64,000 nucleotides of DNA from the NCBI GenBank assembly GCA_951406725.2, contig OX597819.1, positions 62,744,001 through 62,808,000 on the forward strand. The letters run 5' to 3'. Below, piece after piece: positions 975-47,146 of this stretch. The notes beneath the pieces were generated by a model. The model saw only the letters and a list, made by a program, of their open reading frames with translations. It had not been told where the DNA came from and did no database searches. A program made the position numbers and the translations under genes. Origin of the DNA: Octopus vulgaris. Lineage: Eukaryota. Every line of letters starts with the position of its first letter. Position 1 is the first letter of the stretch.

Positions 975-1042
<68 letters not shown>

Positions 1043-1060
1043 TAATAATAATAATGATAA
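957..1060 (+). repeat. (AAT)n microsatellite linker
   Basis: Direct reading. Confidence 0.95.
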
Positions 1061-1063
1061 CAT

Positions 1064-1245
1064 CGAAAAATACCTTAGGAATGAGAACCCAGTTACGAAA
1101 TTTTCCCAAAAGACCTGAAGAAGGCTGGAGGGTATATCAGCCGAAACGTTGTGTTAAGAACAAACAAGATGAGGACAAGTATCCGTCAAATGTAAATAAT
1201 GTAAATAATTTACATACTTCCTCATCTTTTAAATATCGAACGGCC
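1064..1245 (+). mobile_element. Hammerhead-bearing repeat tail (H1 family; HHR at about 1110-1155)
   Basis: CTGAAGAA-GGCTG-loop-CAGCC-GAAA-CG-TT-GTGTT; homologous to 17316-17497. Confidence 0.7.
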
Positions 1246-2624
1246 TTAATAATATTGCAAACCTAGTAGAAATAATATTTTAGATATTTCTAATTCATTT
1301 TGTCTAAGAAAAAAAAATTCCAACGATGTTTCTAAATATGGTAAGGAAGCACTGAGTTGAAGGCCTATTCAGGAACAATCGAGTAATTATTAACATCGCA
1401 CACTTTGAGATAGAAAGAGAATTTGTAATTTGCTTCAATTTACTATGTAATTTAAAAGTATACACATGTGTGGCAAACGTTATTTTGGAATATTTACTTA
1501 ACATTTCCCCTCGAATAAAAGCTCTAAAAAAAATTCTGACTTCATAGAAAACTCATTAAATTCAAATTGTCAGAATTGCAAACTTATTTCTCCAATCCAA
1601 TGGTTCCAACTTGAAACTGTACCAATTCCAGCAATTCCCTGCATGAAAGTAATTATAAACCAAAGAATTAGTTTAAGGTCCTTGTATTGATAGTTATTTA
1701 ACTTCATAATATTATGTCAACAAATTATTATTTAATCTCAAATTTAATCAACATACCTCTAGCATTCATAACTACAACACAAAGGCAAGTATCCTTTGAA
1801 GGTAAATGATATTATACGCATGTAATCTTCATACAAGATTCTATTAAGCCTTTGTGTAAGTGTGATGATAAGAATGAATCAAAAAGCTCTACACAGAACA
1901 GCCGTACAGGTGGAGAAAAGGATGAAACAAAAGATGAAAGAGGAAATAATGATGGAAAAGTGCGTGACGCACAGAAAGGCAAGAAAGTGCCTTAGGTATT
2001 TTAAGATAGGAAAACAAGAGGAATGACAGGACGAGAGAAGGCAACTCTGAAAAGAGGAAATAATTAAGATATCTAATATCATAGCAGATAAAAATATTCA
2101 GACCACTGGGTTTCAATGAATACATTCACATCCGCGCACACACATGCACACACGTATACACACACACACATGCAAAATGAAAGAAAAGTTTTGAAACGAA
2201 CATCGCTCATGCGGCATATCAATAGTTAACGTTATATTCATAAAGTATTGTAATAAGCGTAACTGTTCTAACTCTCTGAGACATAAAGGACGATTATAAT
2301 GTTGTCAGTTTGATACGAACGAACGAGCAGGGTTCGACAAAAACACACGTCAAATAATTGTTTCTAATTCAGGTACAGGGACAGAAATTTGCAGAGAGTA
2401 GGTTAGACTATTATATCAGACCTCGATCTTCGCTGCTACTTGACTCAGGAAAGATGAAAGCAAATTTAGCTTTAGTGACATTTGAACTCAGAACGTAAAT
2501 CCCAAAGAAAGGTTGCAAGGCATTTCCCCCATTTTAATACTTTGCATGTACTACGTCATCGCGCTGTTATTTTCTTTACTTGTATTTTTTCTTCGTTTTT
2601 TTTTTGCATTATATATATATATAT

Positions 2625-3040
2625 ATTTCTTTACTGCCCAAAAGGGGCTAAACATAGATGGGACAAACAAGGACAGACAAAGGGATTAAGTCGATTACAT
2701 CGACCCCAGTGCGAAACTGATACTTTATTTATCAACCCCGAAAGGATGAAAGGCAAAGTCAACCTCGGCGGAATTTGAACTCAGAACATAAAGACGGACG
2801 AAATACCTATTTCTTTACTACCCACAGGGGGCCAAACACAGAGGAGACAAACAAGAACAGACAGACGGATTAAGTCGATTATATCGACCCCAGTGCGTAA
2901 CTGGTAATTATTTAATCGACCCCGAAAGGATGAAAGGCAAAGTCGACCTCGGCGGAATTTGAACTCAGAACGTAACGACAGACGAAATACGGCTACGCAT
3001 TTCGCCCGGCGTGCTAACGTTTCTGCCAGCTCGCCGCCTT
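2625..3040 (-). mobile_element. tRNA-derived SINE family A with partial tandem duplication (2625-2807 / 2808-3040)
   Basis: Minus strand GGCGGCGAGCTGGCAGAAACGTTAGC...GTTCTGAGTTCAAATTCCGCCGAGGTCGACTTTGCCTTTCATCCTTTCGGGGTCGAT; many copies in the window. Confidence 0.85.
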
Positions 3041-3169
3041 AATGGCTTATAAATACTAATAAAAAAAAAGACTTATAATACAATAGAAAATTCAAGACCA
3101 AGACGACAACACTGCACATATGAAATGTCCATAAATCCGTGCACGATAGTGTAGCGAAAGTAACATAGC

Positions 3170-3202
3170 AATAGCAGTAGTAGTAGTGGTGGTGGTAGTA
3201 AA

Positions 3203-3255
<53 letters not shown>

Positions 3256-3257
3256 AT

Positions 3258-3319
<62 letters not shown>

Positions 3320-3359
3320 TAATAACAATAGTAATAATAATAATGATGATGATAATAAT

Positions 3360-3425
<66 letters not shown>

Positions 3426-3500
3426 TGTGAGTTGATAACAATATTACTAATGATGGCGATGATGATAATAATATCAATGATGAAGATGAAGATAATAATA
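3170..3500 (+). repeat. Compound (TAG)/(TAC)n/(AAT)n microsatellite
   Basis: Direct reading. Confidence 0.95.
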
Positions 3501-4150
3501 ACAGAAAAATAATTTTTCAGCAAGCGAACGGCAAAATGAAACAAAAACAGCGAGAACAATAGAAAAATCTAAAGAAAACACGACCAATAAAACCAAAAGA
3601 AAAAGAAAAAGAGAAGAGAAGAAATGAAATATTAAGCGGATTAGATATCTTTGACAAAACATTCTCAGTAGAATCGATCTTGCATCGCTAGATTGAATGT
3701 TTGCTGTAATCCTTCGGAGTTTGTCAATCGAAATGTCAATGAGATCCTGTGTAGTTTAGCAAGTCCTCTCTTGGTGTATCTGTTTGTGCGTGAGCATGTG
3801 AGTATGTGTGTGCGTGTGTATGTGTGTGTGTGTGTGTGTACGTGCTTGTGTGTGTGTGCACTTATGTGTATGTGTGTGCGTGAGCGTGTGTATGTATGTG
3901 CGTCTGTGTGTATGCGCATTTGTGTATAGGGCACCATGGTTTCGTATATAACATCATGACGCACACATTTCTCTAGCTGTATGCCACACATGTGTATATT
4001 AATATATTTGTAGATGCATACATTCATACATGCACATACATATGGACACACACATACACACACATATACACACATAACTACACATACTTATGCATGTATG
4101 TTGATATACACGAATATATACATATACAAACATATAGATATAAATACATC

Positions 4151-4455: not shown

Positions 4456-5026
4456 ATCTATCTACACCTCTATATGTACACCATAACTGCACAAAACTAT
4501 ACACACAGACATATGTACACATATATACCGTCACAGGCACACGCACACTCTTTCTATACATGAATACAGAAATACATACATCCGCAATATAAAATAAATA
4601 TTAAGTAAGAGGATCCTCCGTCGGTTGCGCGGGTGAGTACTCCAGTTGCTGAACTACTGAAACATTTCATTAATGTTGAATTGAACATGTATGCTATAGG
4701 TCCTTTGACCCTTAATGTAACACTTGGCCGGAATAATTGTGGCACACGTGTCATCATGTAACTATGCGTAACAAAGCTGCCCTTTTTTAATTACTGGTAC
4801 TGTCTGTCTAACGATTTGTTACATGGTCTAGATATGTGAGTTAAAGACTTTAATAACTGTACACACACACACACACACACATCCACGCTCGCTTACTCCT
4901 ATACACAATTATGTACAGTCATATATGCACATGCTTTTCTTCCCTCTGTAAACTGAATAACTATACAAATTCCTTCTCATACATTTACGGAAGCGCCGTC
5001 AGATTTTTGCTGATTCCACATAAAAG

Positions 5027-6847
5027 ATGCACTGGTGACGATTCGACGTAGAAATGCTCTGGTACTGGTGCCACGTAGAAAAGCACTGGTTCTGGTTTCA
5101 CGCAAGACAACACCGGCGGTGCTGCCGCGTTAAAAACCCCGGTGCTGGTGCGACGTAAAAAGTACTGGTGCCACTGACACATTAAAAGCACTGGTGCTTG
5201 TGCCGCGTTAAAAGCATTGGTTCTGGTATCACGTAAAAAGAAAAGAGACTGGTTCTGTTTTCATGTAAAAAGAAGCACTAGTGTTCCCTGCTTCCTCATT
5301 GGAGGAAGAGAGGGAGGAAGTCGAAGAGGTGGAAATATCCTCGAAAAAGGGGGAAAAAAAACCGAAAGGTGGGCAACAATGGTTGCCCACAGAAAGATCC
5401 AAAGGCTGCGGGAGGATCTGCAGGATGATTCAGACAAACACCAACCTCCCGTGGCTCAAGGAAAAAAAAGGAAAACAAAAGAGAAACGAGACATTGCCGG
5501 CGGTTTGTGATACACTGCCGGCGTGTCCCGAAGTACCTTCCGTGGGAATTGCGCCACCGAAGTTAGAAACTGTTGATCCCTCCCATGCTGTGCAGTGGGA
5601 GTTTGTGGTCCTCTTCCATAAGAGAGGGACAATGGAGAACTTCATGAAGAAGTTTAAAAGGAAGGGCCGAAAGGAGGGGATCCTGTCCTGTACGGAGGCT
5701 CCTGACTGGCCTTCTCAAGAGGTCATATGGGAAACGGGTCTGTGCAGGATAATGAACTTCCCGGCGGACACTTTTAATTTTGTATTGAGGCGGCCCGACT
5801 AGACACCGTCCAGGTGTTTGACCAAGGCGAGAGGTCTGGTCGGGCTGGATGATTTATAATCAATTAAAGTAAGTGGCTTGGTGACTCATTTGTATTGTAT
5901 TATTATTGACTTTTTGACTTGTGTAAGAGGTTACTGCCTCACAATGGCTTTCTTGTAAGAGGTTTGTTGCCTCAATAAGTATTTATGACGAACAATGTGT
6001 TCGGGTAAACAGCAATCGGCGGGTGTTGCTGTTACCCTCATTATTGTCATATCGTCTATCATTTCATCTCATTATGTCCGTGTCTAGCCCGCTGCTTCCT
6101 TTCTTTGTAAGCCTTTGTGGCCAATGGAATGAATAAAAGAAGCACTACTGTTGAATCCACGTAAAAAGCACTGGTGCTTATTCCTAGTAAAAAACGCTGG
6201 TGTTGGTGCCACGTTCAAAGCATTGGTTCAGGTGTCACTTAAAAAGAAAGCACTAGTGGTGTGATACCACATAAAAAAAAGCATTGGTGGTGGTGCCGCG
6301 TTAAAATCCCTGGTGCTGGTCAAGCGTTAAAAACATTGGTTCTGGTGTCGCGACAAAAAGAAAGCACTAGTGCTGCTTCCACGTAAAAAGAAAACACTGG
6401 TGCTAATTCCACATTAAAAGCACAGGTACTGATGCCAAGGAAAAAAAAAAAACACTGGTCCTGATTCTGCTTAACAAAGCACTGGTGGTGCTGCTACGTT
6501 CAAAGACCTGGTGCTGGTGCAACGTTAAAAATATTGGTTCTGGGGTCGCGACAAAAAGAAAGCACTAGTGCTGCTTCCACGTAAAAAAGAAAAACACTGG
6601 TGCTGATTCCACATTAAAAACACAGGTACTGGTGCCAAGGGAAAATAAAGACACTGGTGCTGATTCTACTTAACAAAGCACTGGTGGTGCTGCTGCGTTA
6701 AAAGCCCTGGTGCTGGTGCAACGGTAAAAGTACTGGTGCTACTGACAAGTAAAAAGAAAAACACTGATGTTGATGCCACGTAGAAAAGCACTGGTGCTGA
6801 TGCCAGGTAAAAATAGCACTGGTGCTGGTGCCACTTAAAAAGCACCC
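5027..6847 (+). repeat. Degenerate ~23-28 bp minisatellite (AAAAGCACTGGTGCTGGTGCCACGT) interrupted by an 854-bp insertion
   Basis: Dozens of imperfect units at 5027-5280 and 6135-6847, running into a SINE-like segment at 6847-6995. Confidence 0.85.
5281..6134 (+). mobile_element. 5'-truncated ORF1-only non-LTR retroelement with 13-bp TSD AAAAGAAGCACTA
   Basis: TSD at 5268-5280 and 6135-6147; AATAAA-type 3' end; ORF 5281-5802 shares motifs with the 46114-47119 element. Confidence 0.7.
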
Positions 6848-10116: not shown

Positions 10117-11399
10117 CAGATGGTGGACAAAATGGAAACATCTTAAATTTAAAAAAAAGAAGCAATTTTAATATGGGGTAGGACTGCCTTTTGTAATAAT
10201 TACAATTTGAATTCTATGAAGTATGGACTCGTACAAAGTTTGAATTGTTTCCAAAGGAATTTTTGTCCATTCTTCAGCTAAAACAGTCTCCAGTTCTTGT
10301 AGTGATGATGGTGGAGAATATCGACTCCTTATTTGTTTTTCTCAAATGCACCATAAATATCTCAATATTATTGAGATCTGGGGACTGTGGTGGCCAGATA
10401 AGATGTTCAACTTCACTAGAATGTTCCTCGTGCCATTCAGTAGCAACATTAGCTGTGTGAATTGGTGCATTATCATCCTGAAAGCTTGTCCCCCCCCCCC
10501 CGGAAACAGTTCTGCAATCGTAGGATGGATTTGATCAGATAAAATGCTTAAATAGTCTTGACTATTAATTCTACTATGAAGGGAAACCATTGGGTCGGCG
10601 GATTTCCAAGATATAGCCCCGCAGATCATCACAGATCCCCCTCCATGCTTAAGAGTTGGAAGAAGGCAGTCTGGGTCAAATGCTTCTTTTCGCTGTCTCC
10701 ACACGTATACTCGGCCGATGGTTGGAAATAAGGTAAAGGATGGCTCGTCCGAGAAAATAACGTTCTTCCACTGCTCTAGGGACAAATTCTGTTGGGTTTT
10801 ACTCCACTTTAAACCCTTTGCGACGTTTGTTTCTTGAAAGTAGTGGATTTCTGATTACAACCCTCCCATGAAATCCGGCTTTGTGCAGCTCCCGGCGAAC
10901 AGTTTTTGTGGAAACTGTGTTCTCGAAGTGGTCATTAAGCTCTGCAGTAATTTTGGGAGCTGTACTTTTGTGATCCTTTCTAAAAATTCGCGTAAGAGCT
11001 CGACGGTCCATATCTGAAAGTTTTGGTTTTCTTCTGGAGTTTTGTTTCAACGAGGAGGATTTTTTTTTTTCCTCTTTCTCAAAGGATGTAATTACTTTCG
11101 AAACAGTACTTCTTGATACACCAAACATATCAGCTGTTTTCGTTACACTAGCGTCTGCCATACGAGCACGGACAATTTGGCCTCTTTGAAAGTTCGATAG
11201 ATCCTGTCATTGTAATGAATTTTAATTAACTTTTTCTGATGATATCTGAAAAGAAACAACAATTTTAACAGAACATGTTAAGCAACACTAATAATAAATA
11301 AAAAAAAACAAAGATGAACAAGCTTTTCAAGGTTTTATAGACATTTCAAAATTATTATTCTATGATGCTAGGCGTTTCCTTTATTTTGTCCAACCCCGA
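10117..11399 (-). mobile_element. Tc1-family DNA transposon (decayed), TA-flanked with imperfect TIRs
   Basis: Left TA|CAGATGGTGGACAAAATGGAAACA; right GGCGTTTCCTTTATTTTGTCCAACCCCGA|TA; transposase inside. Confidence 0.9.
10220..11210 (-). pseudogene. Tc1 DD34E transposase, frameshifted
   Basis: HTH region FQRGQIV..SVTKTADMFGVSRSTVSKV, VSTKTVRRELHKAGF, WKNVIFSDEPSF, VMICGAIS, FQDDNAPIH, WPPQSPDLN spread over several frames; 3' end approximate. Confidence 0.9.
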
Positions 11400-19494: not shown

Positions 19495-19516
19495 AATAAT
19501 AATAATAATAATAATA

Positions 19517-19974
19517 GGCTACAGCAAATATTCTACTCAATACCACAGATTTGCTTGTCTGTTGTTTGACCATAACCAATTGAGCATGCCCCTTATCAGC
19601 TGACAATATGTGCATTTCTGATTACGAGTAGAAGTAGTCGGGGGAACATCATGACCATGTGTTGAGAGGAATTCTTTGGGGTTTGAGTAATTCACCGCTG
19701 GAAACATAGGTATTTTGTTCATCATCCTTAAACAACTCTAATTCAGGGAACTTTTGAGTGGAATGGTCTACTTGAGGCAAACGGGCTTCTAACTGAGCCC
19801 CACCTGCAAGGTCATGTGCTGTTAATCTTGATATGAGATCACCATGTCACGTACATATGGTCGCAATGTATGTGCCTAGTGTACCTTTATCAGACGGGTA
19901 GTCATGATGGGAATACTGGGCTTCGTATATTTTACCCTAGTGTCACTATGATGGTATTCACTGCTCTCTCACTC
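19517..19974 (+). mobile_element. Unclassified non-coding interspersed repeat X, embedded in (AAT)n
   Basis: Homologous to 22208-22665 and partly to 31130-31197; ends CTGCTCTCTCACTC(AAT)n. Confidence 0.75.
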
Positions 19975-20051
<77 letters not shown>

Positions 20052-20053
20052 TG

Positions 20054-20151
<98 letters not shown>

Positions 20152-20152
<1 letters not shown>

Positions 20153-21996
20153 GTGACTCAAGGTGACTCACTTTCACCTTTAATATTTTGCATAGCCCTA
20201 ATATCCCTTACAAGTGAATTAAACAGAACAGGGTATGGGTATAAAATTGCCAATAAAAAAATAAGCCATCTATTTTATATGGATGACTTAAAACTTTATG
20301 GTAAAGACAATAATGAACTTGAAGGCCTATTGCGCACCGTGAAAGCATTCAGCGATGACATCGGGATGGAGTTTGGAATTGAGAAGTGTGCCAAGGCCAC
20401 TTTCCAGAAAGGGAAAGTGAAGACCACAAATTCAGTCGTGTTAGATGTTGACACAGTCATAAGAGAGCTTGAGGAAGAACAAACATACAAATATTTAGGG
20501 ATAAATGAAGGCTCTGGTATTCAGCATGCAAGCATGAAAGAGAAAATCCGGAAGGAATGTTATAGGAGAGTTCGTGCAGTCCTGAAATCTGAACTAAATG
20601 CACGTAACAAGGTGTTAGCTATAAATTCCTTAGCAGTTCCAGTTGTTACTTATAGCTACAATGTGTTGAACTGGAATATGAGTGAAGTAAAGAATATAGA
20701 TAGGAAAATACGCAAGCTGCTGAGTTGTAATAGGATGCACCACCCAAAGGCAGACGTAGATCGCCTTTACCTTCCCAGAGCCCAAGGAGGTCGAGGCCTG
20801 ATCCAATTTGAACTAGCTTACAAAACAACCACAATTGGACTGGCCAAATATCTCGAAATATCGAATGACTGGATGCTAAAGCTCGTGGAAAATCACGAGA
20901 GACGAAAGAAGCTTCATTCTATCATAAAGGAAAGCAAAAAATTTGCTATTGATCTCGTGCAGGATACCCAAACTGAACAACCCGAGGGAAGTACGGCAAC
21001 TATTGTTGCAAAGAAGGTGAAAATGATGGCAATGAAAAAAGCGCACGAGCAATTGGCTGATAGGTGGGAGGAGAAACCTCTGCACGGCAAATATTTGACC
21101 CGCAGCAAACAAGTTGATGTTGACCAGAAGCAAACCCATCAGTGGCTACGGAGCTCAGGGCTAAAAGCAGAGAGCGAAGGTTTCAACCTGGCTGCTCAAG
21201 ATCAAAGCCTATTAACCCGGAACTACCAGGCCAATGTGATGAAAAATGGAGCAGACCCAAAATGCCGATTCTGCAACGACATGATTGAAACAGTGGACCA
21301 CCTAATCTCTGGATGTAAAGTCTTAGCACCAGTGGAGTATAAATTAAGACATGACAGAGTTGGCCAATATCTCCACTGGCTAATAAGTCGGCATTACAAT
21401 ATCAAAACTGCCGACAAGTGGTATAATCACCACCCTGAGGCTGTAACTGAAGGAGAAAATGTAACCATTCTGTGGGACTTTCCAGTACATACAGACCGAA
21501 CCATCAAGGCCAATAAACCAGATATTGTTGTGAAAGACCAAAATAATAAAGTTTGCTTATTGATCGACATGAGCATCCCCTGTGATCATAATATCTCAGC
21601 GAAAGAGTTTGACAAGCTCAGAAAATATAAAGACCTACTCATTGAAATTGAGAAAATGTGGCATCTCAAGGCGGTTACAATACCAGTGATCGTAGGAGCA
21701 CTAGGAATGATCAAGAAGGGAACCGAAAATTATATGAGAATGATCCCTGGCTTACCATCCCTGCAAGAAGTGCAAAAGATTGTCTTAACTGGTACATCAC
21801 ACGTATTGAGAAGAGCATTGTCGATGTGAGAACTGTTGCTGCTCATGTATTTTAATTTAACTTGAAAAAAAAAAAAATGAACGAACTATTGAGTTTGGTT
21901 TAATGGCCTACCAATGTATACTATGAGTTTCTTTGCCCTAGGAGTCGGGAAGACACTCGGCAAGAAATGGAAGCAAATTTGAAAGAAGAAAAAAAA
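20152..21996 (+). mobile_element. R4/Dong-clade non-LTR retrotransposon, 5'-truncated, inserted in (AAT)n
   Basis: Uninterrupted RT-thumb-CCHC-RLE ORF; (AAT)n on both sides; A-rich 3' end. Confidence 0.92.
20159..21829 (+). CDS. Reverse transcriptase (partial) + zinc knuckle + restriction-like endonuclease
   Basis: QGDSLSPLIF, HLFYMDDLKLY, FGIEKCA, YKYLGI, RLYLPRAQGGRGL, CRFC..ETVDHLISGC, RHDRV, KPDIV..LLIDMSIP..KLRKYKDL; the N-terminal poly-I in the ORF track is only the (AAT)n. Confidence 0.92.
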   Translation, partial: QGDSLSPLIFCIALISLTSELNRTGYGYKIANKKISHLFYMDDLKLYGKDNNELEGLLRTVKAFSDDIGMEFGIEKCAKATFQKGKVKTTNSVVLDVDTVIRELEEEQTYKYLGINEGSGIQHASMKEKIRKECYRRVRAVLKSELNARNKVLAINSLAVPVVTYSYNVLNWNMSEVKNIDRKIRKLLSCNRMHHPKADVDRLYLPRAQGGRGLIQFELAYKTTTIGLAKYLEISNDWMLKLVENHERRKKLHSIIKESKKFAIDLVQDTQTEQPEGSTATIVAKKVKMMAMKKAHEQLADRWEEKPLHGKYLTRSKQVDVDQKQTHQWLRSSGLKAESEGFNLAAQDQSLLTRNYQANVMKNGADPKCRFCNDMIETVDHLISGCKVLAPVEYKLRHDRVGQYLHWLISRHYNIKTADKWYNHHPEAVTEGENVTILWDFPVHTDRTIKANKPDIVVKDQNNKVCLLIDMSIPCDHNISAKEFDKLRKYKDLLIEIEKMWHLKAVTIPVIVGALGMIKKGTENYMRMIPGLPSLQEVQKIVLTGTSHVLRRALSM

Positions 21997-22034
21997 TAGT
22001 AACAATAATAATAATAATAATAATAATAATGATG

Positions 22035-22067
<33 letters not shown>

Positions 22068-22109
22068 GAACTACTGAGTTTGGTTTAATGGCCTACCAAA
22101 TAATAATAA

Positions 22110-22665
22110 ATGCCCTGATGCAGTACCAGGCAGTGGCTCTCATGGCTTCTGATCTTAACTGATTGGAAGTGTTATCATGTACATTGTTTTGTCTTGGTAT
22201 AAAAGATGGGCTACAGCAAATATTCTGCTCAATACCACAGATTTGCTTGTCAGTTGTTTGACCTTAACCAGTTGAGCATGTCCCTTAGTGGCTGACGATA
22301 TGTGCATCTCTGATCACGAGCAGAAGTAGTGGGGGAGCATCATAGCCATGTGTTGAGAGGGATTCTTTGGGGTTTGAATAGTTCACCTCTGGAAACATGG
22401 GTGGTTTTTTCAACATCCTTAAACAACCATTATTCAGGGACCGTTTGAGCGGGATGGGCTACTCAACCTGAAGAAAATTCTAACTGGGCCCCACCTGCAA
22501 GGTCATGTGCTGTTTATCTTGATATGAGATCACCATGTCGCGCACATATGGTTGGGATGCATGTGCCTGGTGTACCTTTATCAGACGGGTAGTCATGATG
22601 GGTATATTGGGCTTCGTATATTTTACCCCAGTGTCACTTTGATGGCATGAACTGCTCTCTCACTC
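22110..22665 (+). mobile_element. Unclassified repeat X, longest copy
   Basis: Starts TGCCCTGATGCAGTACCAGGCAGTGGCT like 31042; 3' part matches 19517-19974. Confidence 0.75.
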
Positions 22666-22692
22666 AATAATAATAATAATAATAATAATGAT

Positions 22693-22727
<35 letters not shown>

Positions 22728-22769
22728 CAACAACAACAACAAAAACAACAGCAACAACAATAATGATTT

Positions 22770-36998: not shown

Positions 36999-37682
36999 AG
37001 AAGAGAGAGAGATGAAGAGAGAGAGAGAGGGAGAGAAAGGGAGGGACTGAGTGATACAGAGAAAGAAAGAGAGCGAGAGAGAGAGAAACTGATAGATAGA
37101 CAGAGAGAGAGAGAGAGAGAAGTGCTATAGAAGGACAGATTGATTAAAAACTAAACGACTGGGCACAATAAGAATGCGATAAAGTGATACAAATAAAGAG
37201 AAAGACAAAAGAGAGAGAGAGAGAGAGGGGGAGAGAGGGAGAGAGGAAGAGAGAGAAACGGCGAGAGAAAGAGAGAGAAGGAGGATAAGGAAGTAGAGGA
37301 TGTGAGAAAAATCCTGAGGTTATTTGTGATTCTAAGCAAAGCAAAATTTACTGCGAAAATCTCAAAATGTGAAACATGCATATTAATCTTTTCGCTTTGT
37401 CGTTCTTCTTTGGTTGTTCTTCTTCAGCTTTTCTGCGTTTCTATTTTCATTTTTTTTTTCTGAGTTTGCTTTACTGTTATTATTTATTATCATGTTCTTG
37501 GTTTTATTTTTTTTTTACTTCTCGTCCTCTTCGCTGTCGTTGTTGTTGTTGTTGTTGTTGTTCTTGTTGATATTGTTAACAGTTGTTCATTTTTGTTGAG
37601 AGAGAGAGAGAGACAAGCTTGTTGCAAATAATTGTTCAATATGTGTGTATTTGTATATACACTTTTATATGTATGTGTGTGT

Positions 37683-37719
<37 letters not shown>

Positions 37720-37893
37720 TAAGAAAGTTTGTTTGGTAAAGCACGTGGGTGAATATATAAGAAAATAGTAAAGTGTGAAAAAACGACAGAAGGCTTAAAT
37801 GTTAAAAGATATATATATTTGTGTCAAAATGTCTGGAGAATATTGGAAAAATTTTTTTCCTTTCCTTAAAATGACATAATTTTTAAATTTTTA

Positions 37894-37933
37894 AAGAAAT
37901 TACCGGTTTCGCGTGTAGCTTTTCAAATTTCTT
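37894..37933 (-). ncRNA. Minimal hammerhead-like motif in Penelope 3' UTR (left arm)
   Basis: Reverse complement of 43119-43158. Confidence 0.6.
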
Positions 37934-38067
37934 GTGACGTTATGTTTATATTGCATGGATTTATCGTTGTTTTTATTTCAGGAGATTTCTAAATAAGGGG
38001 AGGTAGTGAGTGATTTTTTCCGGTGTAGGGGAGATAATCGCTTAAAAATTTTTTTCCCATTTCCTTG

Positions 38068-40322
38068 TTAATTTCTCTGTGTCAGTATGTTCGGATGGTT
38101 GAGTCTGGGTTTGTACTTTTCAATGAAGAATGTTTCCTTGTTCAGTCTCATTTGTGTTGATGATCCGAAAGCACATTGGTAAAATGGGAAGATTAAAAAT
38201 TGTGGCAGTAGTTGCTTTGCGCATTTCTCAATGTGCTCACTAAAAGGTATCATTCTATATTCTGGGAATGCAATCTGTTGTCGATGCAGTGTGCATCTGC
38301 GCCTGAGTGATAGTCCCGTGGAACCCACGTAGTCTTGGTGGCAGCCCGAGCATTTAATAACATAAATTATGTTTTCAGAGGCACAAGTAAAGTTAGATTT
38401 GATCTTAAATTTCTGTCCTTCTTTAAAGAAGAATTCTGATCCTTCCAATAGGTTAGGACATGTTGCACAGTTCGATCTACCACATTTTTTTACTTTTGCA
38501 TCCGTAATTTTAGAAGACAATTTTGCCTTTGTGAGAATCTTTATAAGTGATTTAGGCTGTTTGTAGCTTTTAATGATTTGGTGTATGTTTAGAATTTCCT
38601 TAATTTTGGGTTTTTATGAAGTATTGGTAAATTCTGGGTGATGATGGTGAAGGCTTCTTTGTTTCTGGGGTTGTATGTAGATATGTAAGGTAGTATTTTC
38701 GGGGAAGGTGTGTTGTTGTGTTGAACTTTTCTTAAAGTTTCTATGTTGATTTCTGTTGCACGTCTGATCCCATCCTCTATGAGTTGAGCTGGGTAATGTC
38801 TGTCAATTAGGGTGTTTTTGAGTTCTTGCAGTCTAAAGTTCCTGGTATTTTGTTCTGACACTATTGTGCATATCCTTCTTGCAAGGTTGAAGGGTATGTT
38901 TGTTTTAGTGTGTCTTGGGTGGCATGAATTAAAAAGAAGGTATTGTTTGGCGTCTGTGGCTTTGTAAAAAATGTCTGTTTCTATTTTAAGGTTAATTTTT
39001 TTAATTAGTATATCCAAGAACGGGAGCTCCTTTTGGTTGTATTCCATTGTGAACTGTATATTTGGGTTTATGCTGTTCAATAGGTTTTTAAATTTTAGGA
39101 GTTTATCTATGTTTTCATTCCAGAGAATGAAACAATCGTCTAGGAATCGTTTCCAATTCTCTTTTATATATTGAGAGAGGGAGTTTCCAAAGATTGATAG
39201 AGATTCCTGGTAAATGATTATTTCCATGTATCCCATTGTTAAGTTCGCAATGACTGGTGCTGCCCTTGTACCCATAGCAATTCCGGATTTTTGACGGTAA
39301 AATGTATTGTCAAACATGAAGTGGTTATTGTGTAGGATGAATTCAATTGATTTAGTAATGAATTCCTTACTGATCCTTTTTGGTATTTCTTCCGGAAATT
39401 GGTCTAACCAGAATTGTATTGCCTCCAGTCCATAATTATGAGGTATACTGGTATACAAGTTGACTACATCAAATGAAACCAGGATTGTTTCTTCCTTGGT
39501 TTTTTTGGAAGGTGGTTTAACATATCTAAGTCATCTCTGATATGGCTATCGATATGTTTAAGGAAGGGTTTCAAGAGGATGTCCATAAGTAGACTTAGTC
39601 TGTGTGTTTCACAGGTTGGGCCAGCTACAATGGGTCGTAGTTTTAGGTCCCCCGGATTAGGTGTGTGTATGTATGTCTTTGGTGATTTTTTAATGGTTTC
39701 ATTTATAATTTGACTTTTATGAATTTTTGGCAGACCATAGAAAAGGCTAGGTTTGCATTTAAAGTTTGTTAGGAAATCAATCTCTTTGGTTGTCAGTTCC
39801 TTTTCATGGGTTTTAATTAGTGAAGATAGAGTTTTCATTATTTTTTGTGGGGTGTAGTTGGTAATTTTTTCATAATGTAGGTCTTCATCAAGCAAGGAAA
39901 TTACAAGATTTCTGTAGTATGATGTATCCATTATTACAACTGCATTTCCCTTGTCCGCTTCCTTAATGGTTATATCTTCATCATTTTGGAGTTCTATCAG
40001 TTCTTTCCATTGTGTATTGTTAAAATTTGGGTTAGCTTTCTGTTTATGTATAGTATGGTAGGGGAAGTTCTCAATGTGGTTACAGAATTCGTCAAGATCT
40101 TTATTTCTTCCTCTGTGTGGGATGTGTTCACTTTTGTTCTTGACAAGTGATTCATCTTCAGTATTGAAACTGTTTGATGCTTCTGCTAGTCTTAATTTTC
40201 TGCAAAATTCTGTTATATTATCCTTGAGTTCATTTAGGTTTGCTCTGCGTGGAGTTGGTGTAAATTTGAGCCCTTTTGCGAGGATGTCAATTTTTATGTT
40301 AGAAAGAGGTTTGGTTGAAAGA
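38068..40322 (-). pseudogene. Penelope RT + Zn-finger + GIY-YIG endonuclease (left arm, two frame breaks)
   Basis: KGLKFTPTP, IKEADKGNAVVIMD, FYGLPKIHK, LRPIVA, GIAMGTRAAP, RFLDDCFILW, IIYVIKCSGCHQDYVGST. Confidence 0.93.
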
Positions 40323-40723
40323 CCAATACCAGACCCAACCACCATACAGCACAATACGACACTAGGATAAGAAATACACCACACACAAATCACTACTACC
40401 CCATGAACCAAAACTACTGGTCCCCACTAAACACAAGACAAACGCAAAGAAACACTATGTCAAGCAACATCCCACATACAAGAAGTTCGAAACAAAAATA
40501 TTCCCCATACAGAAATTTTACACACACCACAAGCATTAACAACCATAGATTCCCACACACACACAACGATCGGAGGCAACAATACCACCACTCCCCCGAC
40601 CAAATACCACACAACCTCACAGACAACTCATACAAACAAAATTACACCCAACATTTTTTAGCCAGGGACCAGGGACACCAGGACACAGGCTGGAACCTAG
40701 TAATAAGGAAAAACCGAAGATAA
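40322..40723 (+). CDS. Upstream ORF (ORF1-like, low-complexity N/T/H/Q/R-rich), 5'-truncated at the inversion junction
   Basis: Frame is open from the junction to the stop at 40723 and overlaps the RT frame, which is open from 40540. Confidence 0.5.
   Translation, partial: TNTRPNHHTAQYDTRIRNTPHTNHYYPMNQNYWSPLNTRQTQRNTMSSNIPHTRSSKQKYSPYRNFTHTTSINNHRFPHTHNDRRQQYHHSPDQIPHNLTDNSYKQNYTQHFLARDQGHQDTGWNLVIRKNRR
40654..40660 (+). promoter_or_regulatory. Candidate -1 ribosomal frameshift slippery site U_UUU_UUA
   Basis: ORF1 codons CAT TTT TTA; a -1 slip enters the RT frame, which has no ATG until 41119. Confidence 0.55.
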
Positions 40724-42982
40724 TCAATCTTTCAACCAAACCTCTTTCTAACATAAAAATTGACATCCTCGCAAAAGGGCTCAAATTTACACCAACTCCA
40801 CGCAGAGCAAACCTAAATGAACTCAAGGATAATATAACAGAATTTTGCAGAAAATTAAGACTAGCAGAAGCATCAAACAGTTTCAATACTGAAGATGAAT
40901 CACTTGTCAAGAACAAAAGTGAACACATCCCACACAGAGGAAGAAATAAAGATCTTGACGAATTCTGTAACCACATTGAGAACTTCCCCTACCATACTAT
41001 ACATAAACAGAAAGCTAACCCAAATTTTAACAATACACAATGGAAAGAACTGATAGAACTCCAAAATGATGAAGATATAACCATTAAGGAAGCGGACAAG
41101 GGAAATGCAGTTGTAATAATGGATACATCATACTACAGAAATCTTGTAATTTCCTTGCTTGATGAAGACCTACATTATGAAAAAATTACCAACTACACCC
41201 CACAAAAAATAATGAAAACTCTATCTTCACTAATTAAAACCCATGAAAAGGAACTGACAACCAAAGAGATTGATTTCCTAACAAACTTTAAATGCAAACC
41301 TAGCCTTTTCTATGGTCTGCCAAAAATTCATAAAAGTCAAATTATAAATGAAACCATTAAAAAATCACCAAAGACATACATACACACACCTAATCCGGGG
41401 GACCTAAAACTACGACCCATTGTAGCTGGCCCAACCTGTGAAACACACAGACTAAGTCTACTTATGGACATCCTCTTGAAACCCTTCCTTAAACATATCG
41501 ATAGCCATATCAGAGATGACTTAGATATGTTAAACCACCTTCCAAAAAAAACCAAGGAAGAAACAATCCTGGTTTCATTTGATGTAGTCAACTTGTATAC
41601 CAGTATACCTCATAATTATGGACTGGAGGCAATACAATTCTGGTTAGACCAATTTCCGGAAGAAATACCAAAAAGGATCAGTAAGGAATTCATTACTAAA
41701 TCAATTGAATTCATCCTACACAATAACCACTTCATGTTTGACAATACATTTTACCGTCAAAAATCCGGAATTGCTATGGGTACAAGGGCAGCACCAGTCA
41801 TTGCGAACTTAACAATGGGATACATGGAAATAATCATTTACCAGGAATCTCTATCAATCTTTGGAAACTCCCTCTCTCAATATATAAAAGAGAATTGGAA
41901 ACGATTCCTAGACGATTGTTTCATTCTCTGGAATGAAAACATAGATAAACTCCTAAAATTTAAAAACCTATTGAACAGCATAAACCCAAATATACAGTTC
42001 ACAATGGAATACAACCAAAAGGAGCTCCCGTTCTTGGATATACTAATTAAAAAATTAACCTTAAAATAGAAACAGACATTTTTTACAAAGCCACAGACGC
42101 CAAACAATACCTTCTTTTTAATTCATGCCACCCAAGACACACTAAAACAAACATACCCTTCAACCTTGCAAGAAGGATATGCACAATAGTGTCAGAACAA
42201 AATACCAGGAACTTTAGACTGCAAGAACTCAAAAACACCCTAATTGACAGACATTACCCAGCTCAACTCATAGAGGATGGGATCAGACGTGCAACAGAAA
42301 TCAACATAGAAACTTTAAGAAAAGTTCAACACAACAACACACCTTCCCCGAAAATACTACCTTACATATCTACATACAACCCCAGAAACAAAGAAGCCTT
42401 CACCATCATCACCCAGAATTTACCAATACTTCATAAAAACCCAAAATTAAGGAAATTCTAAACATACACCAAATCATTAAAAGCTACAAACAGCCTAAAT
42501 CACTTATAAAGATTCTCACAAAGGCAAAATTGTCTTCTAAAATTACGGATGCAAAAGTAAAAAAATGTGGTAGATCGAACTGTGCAACATGTCCTAACCT
42601 ATTGGAAGGATCAGAATTCTTCTTTAAAGAAGGACAGAAATTTAAGATCAAATCTAACTTTACTTGTGCCTCTGAAAACATAATTTATGTTATTAAATGC
42701 TCGGGCTGCCACCAAGACTACGTGGGTTCCACGGGACTATCACTCAGGCGCAGATGCACACTGCATCGACAACAGATTGCATTCCCAGAATATAGAATGA
42801 TACCTTTTAGTGAGCACATTGAGAAATGCGCAAAGCAACTACTGCCACAATTTTTAATCTTCCCATTTTACCAATGTGCTTTCGGATCATCAACACAAAT
42901 GAGACTGAACAAGGAAACATTCTTCATTGAAAAGTACAAACCCAGACTCAACCATCCGAACATACTGACACAGAGAAATTAA
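40654..42982 (+). CDS. Penelope reverse transcriptase + GIY-YIG endonuclease (frame breaks near 42050 and 42443)
   Basis: IINLSTKPLS..KGLKF, FDVVNLYTSI, GIAMGT, FLDD, LPFLDI, HPRHTK, CGRSNCATC, IIY..YVG, RLNKETFFI, PRLN. Confidence 0.93.
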
Positions 42983-43118
42983 CAAGGAAATGGGAAAAAA
43001 ATTTTTTAAGCGATTATCTCCCCTACACCGGAAAAAATCACTCACTACCTCCCCTTATTTAGAAATCTCCTGGAAATAAAAACAACGATAAATCCATGCA
43101 ATATAAACATAACGTCAC

Positions 43119-43158
43119 AAGAAATTTGAAAAGCTACACGCGAAACCGGTAATTTCTT
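43119..43158 (+). ncRNA. Minimal type-I hammerhead-like motif in Penelope 3' UTR
   Basis: AAGAAAT-TTGAAAA-GC-TACAC-GC-GAAA-CCGG-TA-ATTTCTT: perfect 7-bp helix I, variant core, palindromic CCGG loop. Confidence 0.6.
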
Positions 43159-43291
43159 TAAAAATTTAAAAATTATGTCATTTTAAGGAAAGGAAAAAAA
43201 ATTTTTCCAATATTCTCCAGACATTTTGACACAAATATATATATCTTTTAACATTTAAGCCTTCTGTCGTTTTTTCACACTTTACTATTTT

Positions 43292-43329
<38 letters not shown>

Positions 43330-43435
43330 TATGTGAGTGTGCGTGTGTGTATGTGTGGTTGTATGTATGTGTATATATGTATGTATACATATGTGGGTAT
43401 ATATATATATATATATATGTATGTATACATATGTG

Positions 43436-43473
<38 letters not shown>

Positions 43474-43751
43474 TATATGTGTGTGTGAATGTGTATGTAG
43501 GTGTATATACATGTGTGTATGTATGTATATATATATATAAATATATATATATGTGTGTATGTATGTTAATGTATGTATACACACATGCATGCATAGACAC
43601 ATGTATATATTTGTTGATACATTTACCAGCGCTTCGTTTATTGACCCTCACATTCTCTTTATATTGCACAGAATTTTTGCCAAACTCTAACAAATAATTT
43701 TATGAAGAAGAAACGAAAATGGACGACTACATCTATCTATATATCTATCTG

Positions 43752-45744: not shown

Positions 45745-47146
45745 CTACTCTACTTGTTTCAATCATTTGACTGCGGCCATGCTGGAACACCGCCTTTAGT
45801 CGAGTAAACCGACCCCAGGATTTATTCCTTGTAAGCCTAGTACTTATTCTATCGGTCTCTTATGCCGAACCGCTAGGTCAAAGGGACGCAAACACACCAG
45901 CATCAGTTGTCAAGAGATGTTGGGGGCATAAACACAGACACACAAACATATATACACACATACATATATACATATATACGAGGGGCTTCTTTCAGCTTCT
46001 GTCTATCAAATCCCCTCACAAGGTTTTGGTTGGACACCGAGGCTATAGTAGAAGACACTTGCCCAAGGTGCCACGCAGTGAGAATGAACCCGGAACCATG
46101 TGGTTGGAAGCAATTCTTTTTATTCTTTCTTTGGACAAATACATTAATGAATAAAAATGAAATATAATGAATAAATGAGAGACGAAACCCAACACCAGCC
46201 GATTGGATTTTTCTCGAAAACATATTTTCTTTTTTTTTTTTAAATCAATATGAGGTTTCGAACCTCTTACAAGGGGAGGCACTAAAACCTCTTACTTAAC
46301 ATGTTTCTTTCTTTTTTCTTTTTCTTTCTTAAAGTACAAAATTGAGGTTATAAACCACTACAAAATAATCCAATAAGATGAGGTTTCAAACCCTGTAACG
46401 AGGGTCTTTCACCTACTCTTCGATATATCCATCGATATATTCATCATTATCTTCAATGCCGCTTGAGTTCATGTATCCCGCCATTTCCCATGCCTCACTC
46501 ATGTAGGACATGTAAGTCGTGTAAGGGCCACCCGGCCATGTGCGACACTCCTCTCCAAATCCTTTGAGCCTTTCCCACAAGGGAAACCTTATGACCTCCA
46601 CAGCTATCTGCGGAGGCCATTCGGGATCCCGTGTGAAGGGCATATCTACTGTTTCTTTATGTTCTTTTACTATTTTTTCCACCTCCCCGCGCTTGTAGAA
46701 AAAGATAATCTTTAAGGGTGGGGGTAGTTTCTTCCACCTTGGGTGGCACAACTTCGGGACATGCAGTCGGCACATCATCTCCCCGCTGAGATGACACGTT
46801 CTTCTTCCTTCTTTTATTTCTTTTCTTCCTGGCTTCGGGAGAGTGGAGCTCTTCCGCTTTGTCCGGAGACTCTCCCCCGCCTTCCGAAGCCTTAGGTTCC
46901 TTCGGCGGGCAACTATTGTTGCTCGCCTTCTTCCTTTTTAATCCTTTTTGAGTTAAGGAGGCTGAAGCCTCCTCGACCACATCTACCTCTCCCTTTGACC
47001 GGGTAGGGGAGGTGGCATCTAGTAACTGTTCCAGGACCTTACCATGGTCCTGGGGGCAGTTCCTTTTAATGTGGCCTGGCTGCAGGCACGAGTGACACTT
47101 TGGGGGATGTCCCTCGAGGGGAAGCAAGCTACTTACCACACAGCAC
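45745..47146 (-). mobile_element. SINE family B split by a 1-kb insertion (head 47120-47146, body 45745-46113)
   Basis: Minus: GTGCTGTGTGGTAAGTAGCTTGCTTCC|insert|TTGCTTCCAACCACATGGTTCCGGGTTC...CCTTGGGCAAGTGTCTTCTACTATAGCCTCGG. Confidence 0.8.
46114..47119 (-). mobile_element. 5'-truncated ORF1-only retroelement with CCHC zinc knuckle, 8-bp TSD GGAAGCAA
   Basis: TSD at 46106-46113 and 47120-47127; CHSCLQPGHIKRNCP knuckle; one frameshift; stop at 46413; AATAAAAAGAA 3' end. Confidence 0.8.

Follow-up and report, generated by a model that had tools for sequence, protein, structure and literature searches.

Background

Endonuclease-bearing Penelope-like elements (EN+ PLEs) form inverted, 5'-truncated structures and have an optional tail of 30–40 bp, often at one end (PMC8557442, PMC3846280). 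The published layout of these inverted copies is qualitative and was ascribed to self-priming or to resolution by the endonuclease, and the passages of both papers that deal with it give no count of tail exclusivity or of allele sharing between arms. Here, we analysed 64,000 nt of the Octopus vulgaris genome (the window; contig OX597819.1, positions 62,744,001–62,808,000, our contig C6 of a 2.8-Gb genome), which contain a 5.5-kb palindrome composed of two PLE copies. Unlike the published inverted EN+ PLEs, both arms are truncated and kilobases long. We lean towards reading this palindrome as a single young insertion of Neptune type, for which both nicked target strands would have primed on one RNA, with the enzyme made through a −1 frameshift.

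As far as the consulted parts of the literature describe them, Neptune PLEs and the octopus family are alike in their C-terminal GIY-YIG domain, CX2-5CxxC linker, internal cysteines, DKG and GxKF motifs, (TA)n targets and hammerhead. Neptune-like PLEs, however, are described with an extra esterase open reading frame (ORF; PMC5408684), whereas ORF1 of the octopus family is predicted to be helical, matches nothing in Pfam or PDB, and overlaps the reverse transcriptase–endonuclease (RT-EN) frame in −1.

In vitro, the Poseidon element PAc of Anolis carolinensis nicks and extends both strands, and two RT start sites bound its tail; its dimerisation was predicted (Frangieh et al., PMC11167929). The parts of that paper considered here do not connect the two start sites to inverted insertions. 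PAc and the octopus family share an AT-rich target, a hammerhead near the unit end and a stem around the start region. However, PAc has one ORF, without the CX2-5CxxC linker, and its start sites lie inside this ORF, whereas those of the octopus family lie before ORF1.

Structure of the palindrome

As the preliminary description of the window had stated, the two arms (37753–40322 and 40728–43300) are reverse complements; their alignment contained no substitutions and five 1-bp indels, near positions 37851/43201, 37978/43073, 38043/43007, 38996/42055 and 39499/41551. It was also right that the 3' end of each arm points outward into (TA)n, and that the element is Penelope-like and very young. The palindrome is the only non-microsatellite self-match of such size within the window, and comprises the following parts:

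37688–37721, no strand: left (TA)n target microsatellite
37718–37752, minus strand: 35-bp PLE tail, flanked by two ATATAT sites and corresponding to the beginning of the following unit; absent from the right arm
37753–40322, minus strand: left arm, unit positions 1422–3996, with the RT-EN coding region and 3' untranslated region (UTR)
40323–40324, no strand: 2-nt insert, CC, at the head-to-head junction
40325–43300, plus strand: right arm, unit positions 1019–3996, 5'-truncated by 1,018 bp and without tail; it contains the 'spacer'
43294–43326, no strand: right (TA)n target microsatellite

The spacer had been taken for sequence of the right copy lying further 5', which holds except for its first two bases, CC; in addition, the right copy is itself truncated with respect to the 3,996-bp unit of the family. 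The outer ends are asymmetric because the left arm runs 35 bp further as PLE tail, and the same 35-bp sequence follows the 3' end at the tandem junctions of other copies. Besides the private frameshifts already described for each arm (left, ~39500; right, ~42050), we found a third, previously missed, that is common to both (~42451/38599), so that neither arm is intact.

Between young arms of the family, we counted 57 indel bases, of which a single locus accounted for 26, versus 5 substitutions in 17,860 bp, and homopolymer indels such as these could be explained by read errors or by slippage of the RT.

Inverted insertions carry a single tail

A DNA search for the family returned 3,990 candidates, of which the best 40, near-identical copies, were scored, with 10 kb taken for each of the 39 loci other than that of the window; these 40 loci are therefore best matches selected for length. 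A head-to-head partner was present in 28 of them, indicating that the mirrored RT-EN region is not the exceptional arrangement that had been supposed. Exactly one arm bore the tail in 27 of the 28 inverted loci, both arms in one and neither in none, and (TA) runs occurred at the 3' ends of nearly all 40 loci. Other traits of EN+ PLEs were likewise present in the family: partial tandems forming pseudo-long terminal repeats (pLTRs), inverted copies and the optional tail.

In the genome as a whole, exact end patterns matched 301 ends without the tail and 380 with it. On contigs C1–C3, with 173 exact matches (73 tail-less and 100 tailed), we paired neighbours lying within 12 kb and obtained 43 pairs. 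Of these, 42 were head-to-head, and all 42 combined a tailed with a tail-less end, when chance would produce such mixed pairs in ~49% of cases (P ~2e-12); the 43rd consisted of two separate insertions facing tail to tail. This set of 42 and the set of 28 loci overlap by two pairs. The head-to-head pairs had a median span of 1.66 kb and 3 of 42 reached at least 5.5 kb, so the locus in the window is large but not unique. The palindrome is real in the assembly and unremarkable among structures of this class: it is a large case of the back-to-back insertion that is usual in this young Neptune-type Penelope family.

For an older sister family, the exact tail pattern was too strict (60 matches versus 780 tail-less). 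Of 100 tail-less ends listed for this family, we inspected the first 20; four had an inverted partner, and all four partners were tailed. Inversion is far rarer there (4/20 tail-less ends) than in the family of the window (at least 42/73).

We compared arm lengths in 40 further pairs plus a palindrome on contig C14; three of these loci (L258, L271 and L273) were set aside as complex, leaving 38 simple pairs. The tail was on the shorter arm in 13 of them and on the longer arm in 23, with equal arms in the remaining two, and the arms differed in length by 0 to 4.5 kb. Junctions showed overlaps of 1–10 nt in 25 pairs, above the 43% chance of any overlap, as well as 3 blunt joints and 10 inserts of 2–25 nt. 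In five loci (L039, L051, L052, L270 and L279) the arms exceeded one unit and, in those compared, the upstream partial unit was nearly identical to the downstream unit; arms longer than one unit fit a circular or tandem RNA template.

Both arms share alleles

Comparing arm with arm in the 28 inverted loci, we found 96 substitutions in 38,092 bp, versus 373 expected from other loci; similarly, the arms differed at 28 of 679 polymorphic sites, versus 194 expected. In the window, this sharing extends to two rare alleles:

41883, plus strand: rare substitution present in both arms (mirror position ~39168) and in both arms of the C14 palindrome
42507, plus strand: second rare substitution present in both arms (mirror position ~38543) and in the C14 palindrome

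Both substitutions were absent from 52–59 other arms, and the 1-bp deletion that breaks ORF2 is also common to the two arms. Each rare allele had four matches in the genome, one in every arm of the palindrome described here and of the C14 palindrome, whereas the common allele at one of the two sites had 454. The C14 palindrome (L288, C14:47.006–47.011 Mb) has lost the same base but has different truncation points and a different junction, indicating that both insertions derive from one already broken source. From a source that was already frameshifted, we infer mobilisation in trans: the enzyme would have been supplied in trans to a template that probably carried the frameshift. At L288, the tail is on the other side than in the insertion of the window, and the junction contains a 9-nt templated insert.

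Integration mechanism and alternatives

We infer the following steps. The endonuclease would cut both strands of a (TA)n run, and each 3' end of the target would anneal to one of the two ATATAT sites flanking the 35-nt tail, so that two adjacent start sites of one RNA are used, one by each nicked strand. As one start site would hold one primer, one complementary DNA (cDNA) would include the tail and the other would not; with one RNA for both primers and one site for each, every insertion should receive one tail. The two antisense cDNAs would then grow toward each other, with the 3' ends of the element outward, each would halt at its own point, and host end joining would connect their ends by way of short overlaps or inserted bases. 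The earlier proposal that both target ends served as primers at this locus fits these data.

Each of the two start sites has ATATAT at its end, which could pair with nicked (TA)n. Additionally, in four families (L040:5385-5470, L130, L132, L134 and L137) the second start site lies within a short stem located between the tail and the start codon of ORF1; comparing five sequences, we found both partners changed at 3 of 8 pairs, a weak sign of compensatory change. Twin priming of L1 elements offers a parallel, in that a single RNA is primed by both target strands, giving an inversion joined by microhomology. In L1, however, annealing of the second primer takes place deep within the RNA and the resulting segments are non-overlapping, whereas here the starts are 35 nt apart and the same sequence is copied twice.

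Several observations weigh against priming on a single RNA. The arms of L067 differ at 12 of 29 polymorphic sites and come from two allele lineages, so two templates do occur at times, and L051 bears tails on both arms. The shared alleles do not separate one RNA from two RNAs of one active source, and are also compatible with later gene conversion or with assembly polishing between arms. The expectation that the tailed arm trails, and is hence shorter, agreed with the selected set (18 of 27) but failed in the unselected pairs (13 shorter, 23 longer). Lastly, the start sites of PAc were alike on both strands in the in vitro assay and had no homology to the target, as described in the consulted parts of PMC11167929, while both end in ATATAT here.

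The alternative that best survives these data is that both strands prime on two separate RNAs of one active source, with an asymmetric dimer assigning different start sites, and we regard it as a serious though rather unlikely contender. If one source dominates in the cell, two RNAs explain the one-tail rule and the shared alleles equally well; they also account for the mixed arms of L067 and for the lack of a consistent length order between tailed and tail-less arms, and avoid strand displacement. Nevertheless, 53 shared polymorphic sites show that many source lineages coexist, but clearly mixed arms occur at just 1 of the 28 loci; moreover, at two loci both arms were copied from a template that was already frameshifted and mobilised in trans.

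Self-priming on antisense RNA, or a DNA hairpin intermediate that the endonuclease resolves on either side of the tail (PMC3846280, PMC8557442, in the passages on inverted copies), would produce identical arms and is in line with the short palindromic overlaps at junctions and with the two perfect palindromes with equal arms among the 38 pairs. We nonetheless consider it improbable, given that arms differ in length by up to 4.5 kb and that a staggered cut of fixed polarity predicts the tail always on the long arm or always on the short one, when both occur.

Fold-back of a single cDNA that copies itself, put forward in the preliminary description, likewise accounts for identical arms with common rare alleles. 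However, a copied arm cannot exceed the 3' sequence of its template, and the shorter arm often carries the only tail, as it does here, in 13 of the 38 further pairs and in 18 of the 27 selected ones. The simple form of this explanation is largely refuted and any form of it very unlikely, since a later cut would be needed to remove the tail of the long arm.

Finally, a fold-back read chimera or assembly artefact is scarcely credible: homopolymer indels do far exceed substitutions between young arms, so base-level errors are likely present, and no contig from sequencing runs bridges the junction (those of four runs over 40120–40760 contained family sequence but possibly come from other individuals, and are hence uninformative), but mirroring does not extend into the flanks, only one outer end has a tail, two extra nucleotides sit at the junction, and the one-tail rule holds at dozens of loci joined in different ways, which a read artefact would not bring about.

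Classification of the element

The RT contains a match to RVT_1, the GLKF and ADKG motifs (GxKF and DKG) are present in P0002, and 616 homologs were found. The C-terminus contains a GIY-YIG domain (IYVIKCSGC...YVG plus downstream histidines, CCHH-type), whose own Pfam match was weak (E 0.068), although close homologs of the RT-EN carry PF01541; the RT-EN profile gave no sequence match in PDB. A CX2-5CxxC linker precedes the GIY-YIG domain (CGRSNCATC in P0002) and, together with the (TA)n targets, fits the definition of Neptune in the consulted parts of PMC8557442, judging from motifs. The C-terminal position of the endonuclease contrasts with the N-terminal one that defines Naiad and Chlamys.

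Canonical EN+ PLEs are single-ORF elements according to the abstract of PMC8557442, whereas two overlapping frames occur in all long copies here and also in relatives. This does not exclude membership among EN+ PLEs, because the legend to Fig. 1 of the same paper allows an optional ORF1 separable by a frameshift with a pseudoknot, for a clade that the legend leaves unnamed; a frameshifted ORF1 may already be drawn for Neptune in that figure. Our literature search on frameshifting or twin priming in EN+ PLEs found nothing explicit beyond this legend, and excluded figures and most supplements, so absence from print is not established.

Our own motif scan revealed a putative ribozyme in each arm:

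43119–43158, plus strand: minimal type I hammerhead motif, U3-A8 core variant, in the 3' UTR
37894–37933, minus strand: mirror copy of the hammerhead, with palindromic helix III, U3-A8 core variant

This candidate motif, which lies in the pLTR region as it does in other EN+ PLEs, is identical in 53 of 66 arms, and the U3-A8 variant has already been described (PMC4209133, in part). The Rfam scan of 37500–43500 detected no hammerhead, only microRNA matches driven by microsatellites.

A predicted frameshift between ORF1 and RT-EN

The right arm retains the region in which the two frames of the element overlap:

40325–40723, plus strand: 3' remnant of ORF1 (450 aa in full copies), with its stop codon at 40721–40723
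40654–40660, plus strand: T_TTT_TTA heptamer in the codon phase of ORF1, the predicted −1 frameshift site into RT-EN, within the spacer
40549–42982, plus strand: ORF2, with RT, CX4CXXC linker and GIY-YIG domain with internal CxxC; broken at ~42050 and ~42451

ORF2 spans 811 codons from stop to stop in unbroken copies, and its first in-frame ATG appears only at about residue 190. In long copies, ORF1 (counted from its first ATG) overlaps it by 172 nt, and, copy-specific breaks aside, each of the 28 long arms listed has ORF2 in the −1 frame.

We examined 104 loci for the heptamer, 60 of which include the N-terminus of the RT. Six families of the octopus genome and 11 outside loci, some with a broken or cut ORF1, have an in-phase T_TTT_TT(A/G), which was absent in a few close relatives (L162, L176, L187 and L201). 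Distant RTs mostly lie in one long ORF with an upstream ATG, and 12 of 13 two-frame RTs formed one clade, with a Shimodaira–Hasegawa-like approximate likelihood ratio of 99, in a quick tree of 40 rows with unlabelled relatives. A profile search with ORF1 yielded 1,071 clusters at 50% identity, with RT motifs in none of the best 150. Phe-Leu occurred within the last 50 residues in 71 of 88 full-length ORF1 homologs, versus 6 and 2 in control windows.

Because the −1 overlap of ORF1 and RT-EN at T_TTT_TTA is conserved across the clade, RT-EN is quite likely produced by programmed −1 ribosomal frameshifting from ORF1 at a predicted U_UUU_UUA site. In retroviral gag-pol genes, a −1 frameshift at U_UUU_UUA follows an upstream ORF of structural type and gives access to the enzyme. 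The octopus heptamer and its phase are the same, with two points telling against frameshifting: no conserved stimulatory structure was found downstream of the heptamer by non-pseudoknot folding, which gave 0 to −17 kcal/mol and no common shape, and some relatives (L103 and L137) carry an in-frame ATG just upstream of the RT.

Splicing at an acceptor-like site or reinitiation, instead of frameshifting, appears unlikely. The sequence TTTTTTAG looks like a 3' splice site, and PLEs are reported to keep introns in the consulted text of PMC8557442. A splice acceptor is, however, disfavoured because five relatives (L152, L159, L160, L205 and L230) have the T run in phase with no AG after it, and because contigs of three studies span the overlap unspliced, with no GT..AG joint listed, bearing in mind that contigs drop rare forms. 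Reinitiation would suit relatives with an ATG 7–10 codons ahead of the RT, but not the family of the window, given the late first ATG of its ORF2.

ORF1 has a helical N-terminal domain and a low-complexity C-terminal part; its AlphaFold model is all helical (pLDDT, predicted local distance difference test, 79), and the predicted protein is coiled-coil-like. ORF1 had no Pfam family, no match above 0.80 in the ESM Atlas and no fold match in PDB at E 0.001. Pieces of ORF1 occur in two annotated octopus host proteins, a receptor tyrosine phosphatase and DGCR6 (P0005 and P0006), which are misannotations or chimeric transcripts.

Extending both parts beyond this family, PLE integration might generally be a coupled double priming, by one ribonucleoprotein on one RNA, so that inverted copies and the one-sided tail would arise in one event, with a widespread clade in marine invertebrates (more than 1,000 ORF1 clusters) combining a coiled-coil ORF1 with RT-EN in the manner of gag-pol, through a conserved U_UUU_UUA frameshift that may be new for EN+ PLEs; we propose this only tentatively.

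Other features of the window

An RT-bearing ORF (19952–21826, RVT_1 E 1e-11) lies between two direct repeats of ~560 bp with 86% identity, and (AAT)n runs are present; this region (19514–22767) is possibly a second PLE with pLTRs. On the minus strand, the ORF at 46660–47145 has a CCHC zinc knuckle and resembles a remnant of ORF1 from a long interspersed element, and that at 10345–10854, which had no Pfam match, looks like a fragment of a Tc1-type transposase. Tandem repeats with units of 184 bp and 26/113/198 bp occupy 2624–2990 and 5008–6845.

Outside the octopus, we found PLE contigs within bacterial genome bins and symbiont records (L230–L247, P0032 and P0044), most likely contamination with host DNA.

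Implications

Hundreds of such inverted repeats are potential sources of double-stranded RNA in a host with heavy RNA editing; contigs aligned to a full unit showed balanced transitions, with no readable editing signal. The formation of tandem and inverted PLE insertions is named as an open question in the consulted parts of PMC8557442, and the one-tail rule and allele sharing make the mechanism of PLE integration sharply testable in the existing in vitro system. If the frameshift is true, annotations across the clade would miss ~450 residues from the N-terminus of the enzyme, as well as a separate, abundant protein.

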